Shown in pieces: positions 2,484-7,452 of a DNA stretch of 64,000 bases. The stretch lies in the sequence record OL770074.2, one strand, 5' to 3'. Numbering within the stretch: the stretch's first letter is position 1; the number at the start of each line of letters is the position of its first letter. The DNA is from Escherichia phage vB_EcoM-RPN187. A program made the position numbers and the translations under genes. Below the pieces are notes generated by a model, which was not told the DNA's origin, did no database searches, and saw nothing but the letters and a program-made list of their open reading frames with translations.

Positions 2484-2971
2484 CTCAAATTCCTGCATTC
2501 GGTAATAAAACGTTCAACTTCATTATTCTTGGCCTTTATCTTGTCTTTATGTTCTTGTAAACTACTTTTAATAAGATTAATAATGATGGCGGCGGTACCG
2601 CCGCCAATGATGCCACCAACAACACTTATGATAATAGATGCTAATAAGATAGCAATAATATCAACAAAACCGAAAGAACTCACCTTAGTACTGAAAAACC
2701 ATATAGATGGTACAAATATAATCCATCCTGTTATCCATTGGCACTTATTGAAAAACTTTTCAAGCTCAGCTTGAGTTGTTCGTATTACTTCATCGATAGG
2801 TTGATATCCATTAATGTATCTGTTCACAATAATACCTGCTGGCTGGTCGATTTTAAATTCTTGGCAAATACGTTTCACTAAGTAGGATGGACATCCTGTC
2901 CATCCTACTGAATAGTATGAAATACCTTCGTTGCCATCGTCTATATTAGACCAATATGTTTTGTTAATCAT
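2480..2971 (-). CDS. hypothetical membrane protein, C-terminal FITECR motif
   Basis: ORF track 163 aa; hydrophobic/Gly-rich segment IIAILLASIIISVVGGIIGGGTAAIIINLI; ends ...ERFITECRNLR. Confidence 0.5.
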   Translation of the reverse strand: MINKTYWSNIDDGNEGISYYSVGWTGCPSYLVKRICQEFKIDQPAGIIVNRYINGYQPIDEVIRTTQAELEKFFNKCQWITGWIIFVPSIWFFSTKVSSFGFVDIIAILLASIIISVVGGIIGGGTAAIIINLIKSSLQEHKDKIKAKNNEVERFITECRNLR

Positions 2972-3657
2972 TACCAGCCTTCCATAGGGAATTCCAGATA
3001 AACTTGGGCGTTGACACGAATTTCATTGGTAATCTTTTTAAATCGGTCTGTATTACGAGATACACGTCCGAACCAACGCCATCCATTACTAATTGCACGA
3101 GAACCAGTGTGCCATGTTTGCCAATCAAACTGAAGAAGAGTACGATCTGGAGCTTCCCATTTCTCTAGTTCACCTTTTTCAATTTTTTCGAGGACTTCTT
3201 TGTGCCACTGGCGATAGATAAGTTCGCCATCAGGAATCTGACTGAACTCTGCAGTTCCTGTTGCAAAATGAGTAGGACACACATCAGCGTTAACAAGACC
3301 AAGAATATGTTCAGAATGGTAACGAGGGTTATCATAATCAGGTTGTCCTGCAGTAATAAAGTGTTGACCAACTGGAATATCAGGGCGTGGTACATCATCA
3401 TGGTGATATCCAGGAATAGCAGGATACCAACCAGGCATCAGCATGTGAACTCGTGAATCAAATACTACATCCGAGTCTTTCCAATCATCAGGAAGATTTT
3501 GGATAAAGCTACGAGTAATTGGGCCACCATTATCAAAAGCAAAATTCAAATCGCAGTTAAAGAACATAGGCTCGTTTTTAATCTGGTTGTTTTTAATCTC
3601 ATGAGCAAAACCACCTACTGCACGAGCTTGGCTATTAAACACTTTAGAACTATTCAT
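2971..3657 (-). CDS. hypothetical protein (HHDD motif; possible metal-dependent enzyme)
   Basis: ORF track 228 aa; ATG verified 3657-3655. Contains PGYHHDD and later His residues (YHSEH, WHTGSR). Fold not assignable by eye. Confidence 0.5.
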   Translation of the reverse strand: MNSSKVFNSQARAVGGFAHEIKNNQIKNEPMFFNCDLNFAFDNGGPITRSFIQNLPDDWKDSDVVFDSRVHMLMPGWYPAIPGYHHDDVPRPDIPVGQHFITAGQPDYDNPRYHSEHILGLVNADVCPTHFATGTAEFSQIPDGELIYRQWHKEVLEKIEKGELEKWEAPDRTLLQFDWQTWHTGSRAISNGWRWFGRVSRNTDRFKKITNEIRVNAQVYLEFPMEGW

Positions 3658-3658
3658 A

Positions 3659-3964
3659 TTATTTTCCTCGGCATTCTTTAATGAAATTTTCTAGATTGGT
3701 AGATTCAATAGCTTTTTTACGAGCTTCTGCGTGTTCTTCTTCAGACAATTTACATTTATAATTGACCCAGGCATTATGGTCGAAACTAGTCGTGGCATAT
3801 AATAACAATGCTCCGACGAATAATAAAAACGGTGATAAGAATACAAAACCAGGAACACCATCCATATCGTAAGCCTTTTGTAATACTGCAACAGAAAGGG
3901 CCGCGTAAAAAGGTGATGCAAATATTGTTAAAAGACCAATTCGGTTGGTTTCTGTTAATTTCAT
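3659..3964 (-). CDS. small membrane protein, C-terminal ENFIKECR motif
   Basis: ORF track 101 aa; two hydrophobic helices (LLTIFASPFYAALSVAVL, FVFLSPFLLFVGALLLYA); GAGGAG SD; ends ...NLENFIKECRGK. Confidence 0.5.
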   Translation of the reverse strand: MKLTETNRIGLLTIFASPFYAALSVAVLQKAYDMDGVPGFVFLSPFLLFVGALLLYATTSFDHNAWVNYKCKLSEEEHAEARKKAIESTNLENFIKECRGK

Positions 3965-3992
3965 ATTATTCTCCTCATGTTTTAATAGGACT

Positions 3993-4022
3993 ACTATAAC
4001 ATAGTCCTATCATGTTGTAAAC
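3993..4022 (-). promoter_or_regulatory. T4-type early promoter embedded in a stem-loop
   Basis: Minus strand GTTTAC (4017-4022), 18 nt, TATAGT (3993-3998); 9-bp inverted repeat ataggacta/tagtcctat (3985-4010) spans the -10 region. Confidence 0.55.
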
Positions 4023-4034
4023 AGTTTTGTGAAG

Positions 4035-4991
4035 TTATTTGAAAGGTTTCACCATATGAAAATTTTCTTTAAACCGTTTGATGTAATCATTTTTGCCGAG
4101 CTTATGATACATAGCCACTACTTCATAATAGTTCTCGTATGCGTACTCACGGAACCAACCAGAGGTGATGCTTGTACAGACCTTTTCCAATGCCATCATG
4201 AAACTGGCTTCAGGGTTAATTTTAAAGTCATTAGGAATCTGAGAACGTTCTAATGCTAGTACACATGATTCTTCGTATACACCGGCCAATTTGACCATTT
4301 CTGGTAATGATTCGAACTTCTCTCGTGAGGTCATGACTTCAGAACCGTCTTTCATATAAAATGTATACGCTGGACGGTCTGTTAGCGCAATGGCTTCATG
4401 AATAGTATCATGGTCATATGTATAGATGTCATCTTTAAAGAACGCACTTTTAGAAGTGTCAAGAACTGGGTGAGCATAGTTCAAGGTTTCTTTCTGGCGT
4501 TTCAGCATAATTTCAGTAAGTTCATCGTTCAGTGTAACACCTTTACCGCGAAGATACTGAATATGGTTCATAGTCTTTAAAAAGAATGGATTATTTTTCT
4601 TGAAACGATGAGACATCTTAATTGCAAGACACATCTCAGGAGTTGCCCAGTAAAACCCGTTCAAACGGTCTTTAGTCAAATTTTTCTTGGCGTATTTTAA
4701 AAGGTCATAAGAAGACGTGAAATCTTCAGGAGTGAGTTCACCGACTAATTCACGGACATTAGTGATTGCCGGAACAATATATGCTTCAAAATGAGTTTCG
4801 CGTCCGTTATGGAAACATTTGAAAACTTGGACACCAGGGTTATCTTGATGAACGTATACACCCATCATTTGATTTTTGAATGCATTCCAAGAACCTTGGT
4901 CTGCAATAAAGTCCCAGTCACTATTTTTGATAGCGTTAGAATCAATAAGACCGTGATAGTGAAGTGCACGAGAACCAATAACTAACATCAT
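4035..4991 (-). CDS. hypothetical protein, 318 aa (possible nucleotidyltransferase-like N-terminus)
   Basis: ORF track; ATG verified with GAGGAAA SD. N-terminus IGSRALHYHGL...NSDWDFIAD loosely resembles the GS...DxD motif of Pol-beta-fold nucleotidyltransferases; spacing is longer than typical. Confidence 0.5.
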   Translation of the reverse strand: MMLVIGSRALHYHGLIDSNAIKNSDWDFIADQGSWNAFKNQMMGVYVHQDNPGVQVFKCFHNGRETHFEAYIVPAITNVRELVGELTPEDFTSSYDLLKYAKKNLTKDRLNGFYWATPEMCLAIKMSHRFKKNNPFFLKTMNHIQYLRGKGVTLNDELTEIMLKRQKETLNYAHPVLDTSKSAFFKDDIYTYDHDTIHEAIALTDRPAYTFYMKDGSEVMTSREKFESLPEMVKLAGVYEESCVLALERSQIPNDFKINPEASFMMALEKVCTSITSGWFREYAYENYYEVVAMYHKLGKNDYIKRFKENFHMVKPFK

Positions 4992-5019
4992 AATATTTTC
5001 CTCGGATTAATTCATTAAC

Positions 5020-5271
5020 TTAAATTTCACGACATGCGATATCATATTCATCCCATAGGTCATCGTGTGAAGCCTCTACTAATGGAACGATTGTACCATT
5101 TATGTCTTCATTATAAGGGCAAATTGTACAGTGTGCATCTTCGAATCGGATGCCTTTGTGTTCAGATTTTTTATAACGCATATCGAATATCTTTGCAAAC
5201 TTTTCACGAGTAATGGTTTTAGCAACCACTTTGGTTCCAACACTTTCGTAATAAATCATTGTGGACTCCAT
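5020..5271 (-). CDS. hypothetical small protein
   Basis: ORF track 83 aa; own early promoter upstream (5288-5317); ATG verified 5271-5269. Confidence 0.45.
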   Translation of the reverse strand: MESTMIYYESVGTKVVAKTITREKFAKIFDMRYKKSEHKGIRFEDAHCTICPYNEDINGTIVPLVEASHDDLWDEYDIACREI

Positions 5272-5287
5272 TTAATTTGATAGGACT

Positions 5288-5317
5288 ACTATAACATAGC
5301 CCTATCTTGTTGTAAAC
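5288..5317 (-). promoter_or_regulatory. T4-type early promoter next to an imperfect stem-loop
   Basis: Minus strand GTTTAC (5312-5317), 18 nt, TATAGT (5288-5293); near-identical sequence to the 3993-4022 promoter. Confidence 0.55.
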
Positions 5318-5321
5318 TGTT

Positions 5322-5519
5322 TTAGCAAGAATAACTAGATGATACCCAGCCTTGAACAGTAATACTATTATTTGATACCGAGATTGCATTCTGGAGATTC
5401 AAACCTGCATTATCTTCAATCCACAATGTAACTTCTTCGCGTTCTTCTGTTGCAATTTGGAACAGGTTTTCTAGGGCAGCTACTGCCGTACGTACAGCAC
5501 AATCCAATTCACGAGACAT
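5322..5519 (-). CDS. small protein, member of tandem paralogue family with C-terminal GWVSSSxxC motif
   Basis: ORF track 65 aa; ends ...TVQGWVSSSYSC; ATG verified. Confidence 0.45.
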   Translation of the reverse strand: MSRELDCAVRTAVAALENLFQIATEEREEVTLWIEDNAGLNLQNAISVSNNSITVQGWVSSSYSC

Positions 5520-5528
5520 ATAGTTTCC

Positions 5529-5801
5529 TTAGCAAGTGTGAGAAGATGCAATCCAACCACCAGTTTCAAGGCTCAGGTTGTAGTCGTATTGGTAAACGTC
5601 AGCCCATTCAGCATAGCCGTTTTTTGTACAACGTTCAAGATCGGCTTTAAGTTGTCCGGGTGAATGATATGTTCCACCCATACCATAAGCTGGATACAAG
5701 TCGAATGTTGTGTTTTGTTTATCAGCAATTTCTTTGGCAGCCTCAATAGCTGCATAGATTTTTGCTACGGCTTCAGCCAGTTCGGTTTGTTCTTTAGACA
5801 T
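5529..5801 (-). CDS. small protein, member of tandem paralogue family with C-terminal GWIASSxxC motif
   Basis: ORF track 90 aa; ...YGMGGTYHSPG...ETGGWIASSHTC; stop runs into SD TAAGGAA of the next gene. Confidence 0.5.
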   Translation of the reverse strand: MSKEQTELAEAVAKIYAAIEAAKEIADKQNTTFDLYPAYGMGGTYHSPGQLKADLERCTKNGYAEWADVYQYDYNLSLETGGWIASSHTC

Positions 5802-5810
5802 AATGATTCC

Positions 5811-6116
5811 TTAGCACAACGCAGAAGACGAAACCCAAGCACCTTCAGTAATAACGTAACCATTACCTTCACGCTTAACATCGCCACCATTATTTTCAAT
5901 TTCATCTTTCATCCACTGGGATACGATTTCACCCTTAGGATAATAAGTACGACCGCTACCATAATCACCTACAGAAAATGATACGGCGTATTGGTCTGCG
6001 ATCTTTGTTGCTTCTTCTTCGATACGTTCAGCTTGATTCAGAAGTTTATAAATTGCATCTGAAGCGGATTTGGCATCATTAAACTCTGGTACTTTAATTT
6101 CAATAATCTTACTCAT
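5811..6116 (-). CDS. small protein, member of tandem paralogue family with C-terminal AWVSSSxxC motif
   Basis: ORF track 101 aa; ...GDYGSGRTYYPKG...TEGAWVSSSALC; ATGA overlap with upstream gene. Confidence 0.5.
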   Translation of the reverse strand: MSKIIEIKVPEFNDAKSASDAIYKLLNQAERIEEEATKIADQYAVSFSVGDYGSGRTYYPKGEIVSQWMKDEIENNGGDVKREGNGYVITEGAWVSSSALC

Positions 6117-6472
6117 TTTCTACATTCCTTAATAAAGTTTTCGATTGTTTCATTTTCACGTCTAGCTAGGAGTTCATTATAACTAATCATTTGAGAAGCG
6201 TAAACCTTTTTATTTTTCTTGTTATGGTTTATAAAATCGTAGTAAAAATAGACTACAGTACAAAATGATGCGATGGATGCAAAGGCTTGGGTATACCGTA
6301 AGTCCTGCCATTGGTCTGTGAATCCACCAGTGTTCCCTATAAATCCTAACACAACGCCGTCAATAAGAAATCCAACTAATCCAAAGGCAAATCCCATGCC
6401 AATACTCATAATAAAAATTAGAATGTTCTCACCAAGAGAAGGCCATACGGTTAAGAGTTGAGGCTTTTGCAT
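6113..6472 (-). CDS. membrane protein, C-terminal ENFIKECRK motif
   Basis: ORF track 119 aa; hydrophobic/Gly-rich segments (ILIFIMSIGMGFAFGLVGFLIDGVVLGFIG); ends ...ETIENFIKECRK. Confidence 0.5.
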   Translation of the reverse strand: MQKPQLLTVWPSLGENILIFIMSIGMGFAFGLVGFLIDGVVLGFIGNTGGFTDQWQDLRYTQAFASIASFCTVVYFYYDFINHNKKNKKVYASQMISYNELLARRENETIENFIKECRK

Positions 6473-6846
6473 CTTATTTCCTTAACGAATTCCATAGCTT
6501 CTTCATATTCGTACTTTTTAACAGCTTCATCATACTGAGCTTGGGCTTTTGCGCACTGAACTTTCCATTCTCTTAATCGGGCTCTATAATGACGTCCTTG
6601 GTGCCAATATCCTACCCAATTAATAGGCATTAATAAAAACGGTACAATAAGTGGTGCGACGAACATTAATGAAAATGCTGCATCAGACGATATAACTTCA
6701 CTAGAATCTAAAACAGCTCCTATAATCATAAAGATTAAAAATGCTAAAGCTAAAATAGGGCCAAATAGTACTTCGTTTGGGATTAATTTACGCTTGTATT
6801 CATACGCCCAGGGCTTAATTGGCATGTATAGGGTTGGCTTTGACAT
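6451..6846 (-). CDS. membrane protein (start uncertain)
   Basis: ORF track 6451..6876 starts at a TTG; first ATG at 6846-6844. Hydrophobic helices (FGPILALAFLIFMIIGAV, FSLMFVAPLIVPFLL); ends ...EFVKEIRCKSLNS. Confidence 0.4.
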   Translation of the reverse strand: MSKPTLYMPIKPWAYEYKRKLIPNEVLFGPILALAFLIFMIIGAVLDSSEVISSDAAFSLMFVAPLIVPFLLMPINWVGYWHQGRHYRARLREWKVQCAKAQAQYDEAVKKYEYEEAMEFVKEIRCKSLNS

Positions 6847-7411
6847 ATTCTCTACATTCCATAATAAATTGCTCAAGGATTAAATTGTTAGTGAAATTAG
6901 GACTAACAACCATGGTTTCATAAAGCGCATCAATAGCACTTAAAGCATCAACTCTTTTAAGCAAAGGCTTGCCTTCATACATAGTTTCAGAATCGACGAT
7001 TAACGTAAAGTAATATTTTTTATTATTGACCAGAACTTCTGTATCAATATAAAACATGTTAGATCTTAAAAGCTTATCTCTAAAACCATAATAATCTTCA
7101 GAGCGTTCGCTGATATATTCCAATTCAGTGTTTAAACAACAAACAGACCACGTAGGAGCAACGAAATCAGTGAATCTAATATCATGGTCTGCAACTAGTT
7201 TAGCAATAGCTCCGATATCATGAATCATAATACCTGGGGCTAATAAAGATTTTCGGTTATTTGCATATTCAGTTGTCTCATAAGAAGACGACCAGTACCA
7301 TTTACGTCCAGTTGCAACATATCGTAATGAATCAACTAAAGACGTAGGTGGATTTACCTTATTTCGGAACTCTTCGAACATTGAGTCAATATCATTATTT
7401 TGGTTTCGCAT
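6815..7411 (-). CDS. hypothetical protein with C-terminal EQFIMECRE motif
   Basis: ORF track 6815..7432; ATG at 7411-7409 with AAGGAG SD is the likely start (MRNQNNDIDSMFEEF...). Confidence 0.5.
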   Translation of the reverse strand: MRNQNNDIDSMFEEFRNKVNPPTSLVDSLRYVATGRKWYWSSSYETTEYANNRKSLLAPGIMIHDIGAIAKLVADHDIRFTDFVAPTWSVCCLNTELEYISERSEDYYGFRDKLLRSNMFYIDTEVLVNNKKYYFTLIVDSETMYEGKPLLKRVDALSAIDALYETMVVSPNFTNNLILEQFIMECREYVKANPIHAN

Positions 7412-7430
7412 GTTAACTCCTTTATTATCC

Positions 7431-7452
7431 AAAAGGAGGACCGGAGTCCTCC
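7431..7452 (-). terminator. intrinsic terminator-like hairpin
   Basis: 7-bp stem ggaggac/gtcctcc with cgga loop (7435-7452); minus strand followed by UUUU; lies 9 nt after the stop of the 7461..8054 gene. Confidence 0.4.

Follow-up and report, generated by a model that had tools for sequence, protein, structure and literature searches.

A MenT-related nucleotidyltransferase of Escherichia phage vB_EcoM-RPN187 and its genetic linkage to arrays of small acidic proteins

Nucleotidyltransferases (NTases) of the DUF1814 (AbiEii/MenT) branch have been defined by a motif I, an unusually long x15 spacer, a motif II that carries an arginine, a motif III of the form KLxAaxxR and a motif IV of the form +DxxD. 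MenT1 is a tRNA 3'-end NTase controlled by a 68-amino-acid (aa) upstream-encoded protein whose N-terminal helix suffices, and MenA1 induces auto-phosphorylation of MenT1 on threonine; MenT active sites transfer phosphate to the Ser/Thr hydroxyl of a protein. Here we describe an NTase gene at positions 4035 to 4991 (minus strand) of a 64,000-nucleotide stretch of Escherichia phage vB_EcoM-RPN187 (sequence record OL770074.2; the whole stretch is called the window below), a segment of a Mosigvirus (RB69-like) genome. The analysis establishes the Pol-beta fold of the protein, the conservation of its catalytic residues, early-type promoter signals at the gene and a two-way linkage with genes for small acidic proteins. 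The enzyme appears to be a distant, phage-restricted relative of the DUF1814 branch with a C-terminal helical lobe of its own (DUF7275), and the small proteins beside it, which share a common tail, point to an enzyme-substrate or enzyme-regulator pair.

The nucleotidyltransferase and its relatives

The open reading frame (ORF), of 318 aa, runs from 4991 to 4035, the end coordinate counting the stop codon, and is preceded by a Shine-Dalgarno sequence (GAGGA, 4999..5003; minus strand, as are all features of the window described here) 7 nt before the ATG. The product is the homologue of RB69ORF134c, has no counterpart in T4 and belongs to PHROG 2141, with Pfam DUF7277 over aa 2-101 and DUF7275 over aa 120-305; none of these families carries a functional assignment. 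The initial annotation, which was made from the sequence alone, had placed here a 318-aa protein beginning MMLVIGSRALHYHGL...NSDWDFIAD. This is a real ORF on the minus strand with a ribosome-binding site, and its N-terminus, MMLVIGSRALHYHGLIDSNAIKNSDWDFIAD, is as quoted there.

The N-terminal catalytic core (aa 1-110; 4662..4991) is arranged as strand-helix-strand, followed by strands that include the third carboxylate. We computed conservation on 145 cluster representatives sharing 35-49% identity with the query. Residues I5-G6-S7 fit the Pol-beta motif hG[GS] at the end of strand 1 and the start of the helix (motif I, G6-S7, 4971..4976), where G6 is 100% conserved with no substitutes and S7 is 97% conserved, being replaced nearly always by glycine. 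Motif II, D25-W-D27 (4911..4919), fits with the following F the [DE]h[DE]h pattern of strand 2; D25 is present in 99% of the sequences and otherwise replaced by Glu, while D27 is 100% conserved with no substitutes. The third catalytic carboxylate (h[DE]h), E69 (4785..4787), lies in the local context F-E69-A on a strand assigned to residues 64-73, and is Glu in 90% and Asp in the remaining 10%. These residues make up the hG[GS] / [DE]h[DE]h / h[DE]h signature of the Pol-beta fold. A GS...DxD pattern in one sequence could arise by chance, and it is the conservation across the 145 representatives that raises it above chance. Both G-S and DxD are kept even in the 251-263-aa versions found in Gordonia, Streptomyces and Vibrio phages.

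Structural comparison gave MenT1 (8AN4) as the best neighbour, with a match figure of 10.1 over 145 aligned residues, followed by ANT(2'')-Ia (8.6), TglT/MenT3 (6J7N; 8.5), TM1012 (7.7), MenT4 (6Y56; 7.7), 5UVD (7.6), 4OK0 (7.4) and LnuA (7.2). Foldseek agreed with these neighbours, more weakly, and the protein is structurally similar to solved members of the Pol-beta fold. Neither an unrelated fold nor a lack of conservation in the acidic residues, the two outcomes against which the initial annotation had set its Pol-beta reading, was found; the structural matches and the conserved carboxylates therefore support that reading. We consider it highly likely that the gene product is a catalytically competent NTase. 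Sequence models are less informative, as in a Pfam scan of 32 members at E<=10 we obtained only isolated sub-threshold matches to DUF6036, Polbeta and DUF4269, and searches of NCBIfam, PADLOC and the PDB (by sequence and by profile) returned nothing useful for the NTase. That none of the 32 members matches a known NTase model significantly would suit a catalytically dead scaffold, in which the fold has been retained purely for binding. However, the three catalytic carboxylates and G-S are under strong purifying selection, with conservative substitutions only, across more than 1,600 clusters, and we regard such a scaffold as very improbable.

The family is large, with more than 2,100 clusters at 90% identity and 1,617 representatives at 50% identity. 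Homologues occur in 733 deposited phage genomes from many host genera, and the carriers include T4-like, rV5-like, Acinetobacter, Aeromonas, Pseudomonas and Vibrio phages, jumbo phages and actinophages. Family members are labelled 'hypothetical' almost everywhere and Pfam offers only the two DUFs. A few GenBank records name distant homologues 'nucleotidyltransferase', and the fold assignment by itself is therefore not new. Among genomes of 185,579 species the NTase was found in only five contigs, all of them from metagenome bins, indicating that the family is essentially phage-restricted.

Comparison with the published DUF1814 definition revealed both likeness and departure. The spacer between G[SG] and D is x17 in the RPN187 NTase, and x15 is the mode of the family (43 of the 145 sequences), followed by x14 and x16 within a range of x13-19. 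The segment K125-[ML]-S-H128-R129-[YF]-x-[KR] resembles motif III but is not identical to it, since K125 is 100% conserved while the aromatic residue stands at +5 instead of +4 and the K/R at +7. Likewise, K139-T140-M-x-D143 (K139 100%, T140 99% and D143 92% conserved) resembles motif IV, with Thr in place of the first Asp. No equivalent of the motif-II arginine was seen, positions 19-24 before D25 being variable (K/E/R/N, P, K/R/S/L), and the Pfam AbiEii model (PF08843) matched none of the 32 members even at E<=10. Given the absent arginine, the Asp-to-Thr change and the lack of an AbiEii match, we place the protein as a probable distant relative of the DUF1814 branch and not as a member. The likeness to DUF1814/AbiEii/MenT thus consists of the best structural neighbours (MenT1, MenT3/TglT and MenT4), the x15 spacer mode and the helices resembling motifs III and IV. 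On the other hand, about 150 C-terminal residues of the RPN187 NTase have no counterpart in MenT, and the RPN187 family is essentially phage-only and encoded by an early phage gene, whereas MenT and AbiE form chromosomal toxin-antitoxin or abortive infection modules.

The C-terminal helical lobe (aa 112-318; 4038..4658) contains the motif III-like K125-M-S-H128-R129 and the motif IV-like K139-T140-x-x-[D/H]143. Its first two helices are the counterparts of the MenT motif III and IV helices, and the remainder has no solved relative. The lobe is better conserved than the catalytic core, with K125, K139, H194, D195, H198, E240, E241, E248, R249, S277, G278 and R281 invariant in all 145 representatives and K270, C272 and S274 also listed as conserved. 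We considered whether the lobe could be an HD-domain phosphohydrolase and rejected this, since an HD fold with its H...HD...D metal site was not seen. An enzyme of the class-II CCA-adding or poly(A) polymerase type was rejected in the same way, as the combination of a PolyA_pol head and an RNA-binding body was not found.

Other described NTases are further removed. ANT(2'')-Ia (4XJE) and LnuA (4WH5), which are of about 160-180 aa and have antibiotic substrates, show no sequence relationship to the RPN187 NTase, and nothing at the latter suggests an antibiotic as substrate. Phage NTases of the RlaP type (from Bcp1 and Av-05) counter TIR-STING by synthesizing competitor cyclic dinucleotides (Ho et al., bioRxiv 10.1101/2022.06.09.495361). 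Like these, the RPN187 protein is a phage-encoded Pol-beta NTase of an accessory region, and the SDWD tetrapeptide is also present in the Bcp1 enzyme. However, RlaP-type enzymes (Av05_0062 corresponds to Pfam RlaP, PF10127) have a short spacer in GS-x-AYGT-x4-SDxD together with NP-x-h2[DE], and the RPN187 NTase has neither the AYGT nor the NP-x-h2[DE] element. With an hhalign probability of 0.2% against Av05_0062 and no match to RlaP, we rejected membership in this group of cyclic dinucleotide-synthesizing NTases. A search of the whole Av-05 genome revealed no homologue of the RPN187 NTase (best tblastn E = 2.3).

The small acidic proteins and their linkage to the enzyme

Upstream of the NTase gene, the window encodes three small acidic proteins that end alike: the first of 101 aa, with the end ...GAWVSSSALC (5811..6116; PHROG 899), the second of 90 aa, with ...GGWIASSHTC (5529..5801; PHROG 899), and the third of 65 aa, with ...QGWVSSSYSC (5322..5519; PHROG 4882). 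A Phapecoctavirus, an Acinetobacter phage and Acidovorax phage ACP17 likewise encode ORFs with W-S-S-C tails beside the NTase. We defined the tail motif as an ORF of at most 200 aa ending in W-x-x-S-S-x(0-2)-C-stop, and searched for it at the top 80 IMG/VR loci carrying the NTase (39-95% identity), with up to 10 kb of flank on each side as the contig allowed. At least one such ORF was present at 77 of the 80 loci, with 191 ORFs in total, as against no match to the reversed motif among 15,340 ORFs. The strand of the NTase carried 187 of the 191, all of them upstream of it, and 186 lay within 3 kb of the NTase, in a zone that makes up 7.6% of the sequence searched (median gap 884 bp). Variant tails were seen at two of the three motif-negative loci (NWDSSTC; GWFPSEIGC / SWQSSQQNC) but not at the third, L033. 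The NTases of the exception loci (L033, L056 and L088) keep all catalytic residues, and no signal was found that discriminates them. No ORF with the tail motif occurs in the remainder of the window, or in the 121 kb of phage Av-05, which lacks the NTase.

The reverse test gave a consistent result. A DNA pattern for G-x-W-x-S-S-S-x-x-C-TAA, searched across 2.9 million viral contigs of IMG/VR, matched 33 stretches, of which 28 were on contigs with the NTase; at the other five the stored stretch ends too soon to decide, and there were no clear counter-examples. Three of the 28 contigs fell outside the top 80 loci, and on these the motif is followed, 376-666 bp further on and on the same strand, by the NTase. 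Moreover, all five of the metagenome-bin contigs mentioned above, which form an independent set, have a motif ORF directly upstream of the NTase. Clustering of the same-strand ORFs around the 80 NTases revealed no other conserved gene of the module beyond lineage-specific synteny, and no other conserved gene neighbour was found in distant phages. Taken together, these results indicate that the NTase very probably functions together with the small proteins.

This linkage also bears on the possibility that the enzyme modifies a small molecule or a nucleotide signal in the manner of ANT(2'') or LnuA. Its substrate would then be a metabolite, an immune nucleotide signal or an anti-phage compound resembling an antibiotic, and the small proteins would be neighbours that are merely co-regulated with it and serve another role. 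A linkage that holds in both directions and is specific for strand and position in very divergent phages is hard to attribute to a shared location alone, and the enzyme has no relationship to cyclic-dinucleotide synthases of the phage RlaP type. We hence consider a small-molecule substrate unlikely.

The small proteins constitute one homologous family, in that 157 of 164 unique sequences fall into a single BLAST component. They are 52-173 aa long, with a median of 90 aa and a median isoelectric point of 4.4, and are encoded as one to five tandem paralogs per locus. Their architecture starts with a helix ending in AE-x-[IL]-A-D-E, after which come a short strand and a YG-x-G-x-TYY-P turn; an acidic linker that varies between the proteins then leads to the tail. 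Two classes of tail could be distinguished, G-x-W-[VLI]-S-S-S-x-x-C (135 sequences) and D-G-x-[IV]-W-x-[PS]-S-S-C (28 sequences). The W, the S-S and the terminal C are 100% invariant in both classes by construction of the search motif, and the flanking positions are also strongly biased. One subclass has a second, internal copy of the unit, D-W-x-N-S-S-C-Y-G-E-E. No Pfam family covers the small proteins, and the PHROGs to which they belong (899, 4882 and 23943) are all listed as 'unknown'. At small ORFs 2 and 3 of the window, the overlap TGC-TAA-GGA combines the terminal Cys codon, the stop codon and the Shine-Dalgarno sequence of the next gene, and the two ORFs appear to be translationally coupled to the preceding one.

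A fourth ORF, directly upstream of the NTase gene, is a degenerate paralog of the small proteins (5020..5271). The longest-ORF rule gives it 83 aa, but translation probably begins at an ATG at 5259 that is conserved in homologues, for a length of 79 aa as in RB69ORF135c. Its segment VRFEDAHC..PYNED aligns with VRLEDWLNSSC-YGEE, with loss of the W, the S-S and the terminal Cys. The degenerate paralog is found in T4-like loci only, where its place is again directly upstream of the NTase, and as no homologue of the 83-aa ORF lies beside the NTase in seven distant phages, we rejected it as a conserved antitoxin-like partner.

Two further observations concern these sequences. In the RB69 reference the first small-protein paralog, a single 101-aa ORF in RPN187, is annotated as two ORFs of 33 and 71 aa (RB69ORF138c/139c; locus L001, 8211-8517), which could stem from a frameshift or from an artefact of the RB69 sequencing or annotation. 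Additionally, the most conserved segment of the NTase, aa 271-282 (4146-4181; K-V-C272-T-S-I-T-S-G-W279-F-R-E), resembles the tail of the small proteins in reverse (C-x-S-x-x-S-x-W against W-x-S-S-S-x-x-C). This could be a coincidence, or could reflect a pairing of the enzyme with the tail through strands or a metal site.

Promoter cassettes and genomic setting

The T4 early promoter consensus was used to call promoters. A promoter of the T4 early type, GTTTACA-N17-TATAGT extended by a TG ahead of the -10, reads from 5317 to 5288 within a stem-loop cassette (5288..5317) ahead of the degenerate paralog, which is followed by the NTase gene; judged by its position, it would drive both. A second copy of the promoter/stem-loop cassette lies directly after the NTase stop codon (3993..4022), so that the unit of degenerate paralog and NTase is bracketed by two cassettes, which are identical at 48 of 65 positions (65-nt segments 4040->3976 and 5335->5271). 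A third match to the promoter pattern was found at about 12082. All three cassettes are near-identical in GTTTACA...GATAGGxCTATGTTATAGTAGTCCTAT, and each forms a stem-loop that covers the -10 element, at about -16 kcal/mol; they resemble the promoter-early stem-loop (PeSL) shuffling cassettes of T4-type phages. Ahead of the small-protein array there is a promoter-like site, GTTTACG-N17-TATAAT (6176..6204), recognized by its consensus match alone. The early expression claimed for the gene in the initial annotation is thus supported at the level of sequence signals.

Over the region 3600-5400, the window shares 100% identity with Escherichia phage AV113 and 95% with RB69. In the latter, RB69ORF134c sits in an RB69-specific block, ORF132c-139c, between e.2 and e.3; no gene of this block has a 'similar to T4' note, while the neighbours outside it do. 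The gene next downstream of the NTase (3659-3964) is a member of a membrane-protein phrog family, in agreement with the membrane-protein neighbours that the initial annotation had noted. Several membrane or accessory proteins flanking the module (2480-2971, 3659-3964, 6113-6472, 6451-6876 and 6815-7432) have a C-terminal [NE]-F-[IV]-x-E-C-R motif in common, exemplified by NFIKECRGK, NFIKECRK, RFITECRNLR and QFIMECRE, and this group looks like the e.2/e.3-like 'membrane-protein family' of that annotation. Farther away, an 86-aa ORF at 485-745 starts MKMYQEFIAE, resembling the capsid-targeting sequence of T4 internal proteins, and this start agrees with 'internal head protein' annotations at the same position in RB69.

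Escherichia phage Av-05 (GenBank KM190144), classed as an Avunavirus, contains an RB69-like block at about 100-114 kb with genes for nudix, lysozyme e, denV, internal head protein, regB, vs, tk and rI. It includes homologues of the window ORFs 3659-3964 and 2971-3657 at 96-97% identity, without the NTase and without the small-protein array. The block may be a chimeric assembly or a real mosaic. The Av-05 genome also has Nampt/PRPP synthetase genes (L009 10571-13159) while the NTase is absent.

The surroundings of the NTase differ in other phages. In distant phages it is found near NAD-salvage genes (Nampt, Vibrio K412; L008 8-1663) or RNA-repair genes (RNA ligase, Streptomyces phage Beuffert; L007 788-1447), and Gordonia phage ClubL has it 1.2 kb ahead of the tRNA cluster. 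None of these NAD-salvage, RNA-repair or tRNA neighbours is conserved across lineages. The short-form NTases share another homologous downstream neighbour (PHROG 8206/18295; motif GGEGxGE...F.K.G.Y.SW...WDG...EV.P), encoded at L005 4887-5357, L007 3130-3468 and 3511-3822, and L008 3491-3856. We rejected this 'group B' neighbour both as a missing half of the fold supplied in trans and as a relative of the small proteins (hhalign probability <=0.2%).

Substrates or regulators of the enzyme

We tentatively propose that an active, early Pol-beta NTase and the small acidic proteins encoded upstream of it form a two-part module in which a tail Ser of the small protein accepts a nucleoside monophosphate (NMP). 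The NTase would be made early in infection and would be paired with the small proteins encoded directly upstream. The C-terminal helical lobe would dock a small protein, so placing its tail, W-x-x-S-S-(x-x)-C, in the catalytic cleft, where the G-S / D-x-D / E metal site and the putative nucleotide-binding helices with K125 and K139-T140 would move an NMP from a nucleoside triphosphate to the hydroxyl of the tail Ser. The outcome would be O-nucleotidylylation of the protein tail, perhaps lengthened by further nucleotides, and the modified small proteins would be effectors acting on the host. The physical interaction, the accepting Ser, the kind of nucleotide and what the modified proteins go on to do are all steps that we infer.

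ANT(2'') and LnuA nucleotidylylate hydroxyl groups, and one to five tandem paralogs per enzyme are typical of substrates or precursors and unusual for antitoxins. We lean towards substrates because of the MenT, ANT and LnuA precedent, the number of paralogs per enzyme and the concentration of conservation in the tail; even so, that the small proteins are nucleotidylylated is an assignment of somewhat less than even confidence. By analogy, the locus resembles systems in which one modifying enzyme is encoded beside an array of small paralogs sharing an invariant Ser/Cys motif, of which the lanthipeptide synthetases with multiple precursor genes are an example. It differs from these in the fold of the enzyme and in its 'precursors', which are acidic proteins of 52-173 aa with conserved N-terminal elements, and whose modification is conjectural. 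It is possible, though we hold it cautiously, that large virulent phages possess a post-translational modification system of their own, in which the MenT-related NTase covalently nucleotidylylates the tails of these early small-protein arrays, or activates and then cross-links them; the conjugates of protein and nucleotide, or the matured mini-proteins, would be effectors of host takeover or counter-defence.

Several points weigh against nucleotidylylated substrates. The promoter assignments are consensus matches only, and no Pfam NTase model is significant on any of the members scanned. Locus L033 has an intact NTase with no motif ORF within 4 kb, and the short-form NTases (251-263 aa; Gordonia, Streptomyces, Vibrio K412) have no tail-motif neighbours. 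The invariant His/Asp/His/Glu cluster of the lobe could indicate a second chemistry. Finally, the closest solved relatives, MenT1, MenT3 and MenT4, target tRNA 3' ends under the control of small antitoxins encoded upstream, and the same gene order therefore fits regulators as well.

This last point leads to the main rival, a toxin-antitoxin-like arrangement in which a MenT-like NTase adds nucleotides to the 3' ends of tRNA or other RNA, leading to host shut-off or countering an RNA-based defence, and the small proteins are its inhibitors or regulators. They could bind by the N-terminal helix, with the W-S-S-C tail plugging or repositioning the active site. In its favour, the three MenT enzymes are the best structural neighbours and the motifs and x15 spacer are DUF1814-like. 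MenT1 is under the control of a 68-aa upstream protein acting via its N-terminal helix, with MenA1 triggering auto-phosphorylation, and the small proteins likewise are upstream, of 52-173 aa, and have a conserved helix at the start. However, tandem arrays of one to five paralogs per enzyme would be unusual for antitoxins, and the only invariant residues of the small proteins are in the extreme tail and not in the helix. These acidic W-x-x-S-S-x-x-C partners do not appear to be antitoxins of the MenA or AbiEi type: they have no similarity to COG5340/AbiEi-type antitoxins, neither PADLOC nor Pfam gave an AbiE-type match among the genes tested, and the small upstream genes represent a different family. 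The enzymes differ as well. The NTase family is mildly acidic (median pI 6.2), while the active-site surfaces of MenT3 and MenT4 are described as electropositive, and the RPN187 NTase keeps the first Asp of DxD, whereas MenT1 and MenT3 have a phospho-acceptor Thr/Ser two residues before the catalytic Asp, which would be the position of that first Asp. On balance, we consider regulation of this type possible but less likely than nucleotidylylation of the small proteins.

The conservation of Ser and Cys in the tail also raises the possibility of maturation in the manner of ribosomally synthesized and post-translationally modified peptides (RiPPs). In such a scheme, the tail Ser would be nucleotidylylated and the lobe would then eliminate it to dehydroalanine and/or add the nearby Cys thiol to form a lanthionine-like ring, or another Trp/Ser/Cys cross-link would be made. 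Lanthipeptide synthetases likewise first activate Ser and then carry out an elimination, one to five 'precursors' with an invariant Ser/Cys core are arrayed in tandem beside a single two-domain enzyme, and the invariant H-D-x-x-H / E-E / E-R cluster of the lobe looks like a second catalytic or metal site. However, we know of no NTase-fold enzyme that carries out such chemistry, and the W-x-x-S-S-C class of tail has no spacer between Ser and Cys. The lobe shows no likeness to any lyase or cyclase, and the small proteins, with their conserved N-terminal elements and variable acidic linker, are not short peptides. We regard RiPP-like maturation as unlikely.

Literature searches on DUF7275/DUF7277, RB69ORF133c-139c, PHROG 2141/899/4882 and phage NTases with peptides or AMPylation returned nothing relevant, subscription journals being outside their coverage. 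What is new here is that a MenT-related NTase is combined both with a new lobe and with a dedicated family of partners, itself new; we found no comparable description. The assignment of an NTase with a conserved active site provides a mostly 'hypothetical' family with a testable biochemical identity, and the linkage to the W-x-x-S-S-x-x-C proteins allows an early gene of no known role to be read through a concrete model of two components, acceptor motif included. In RB69-like genomes, a context is thereby given to at least five genes annotated as 'hypothetical'. If the small proteins are substrates, the phages would encode a protein modification of a new kind; should they instead be regulators, the module would be a phage-borne offshoot of the MenT/AbiE toxin-antitoxin family that serves the virus and not the host. 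Either reading has implications for host takeover, or the disarming of hosts, by T4-like phages.

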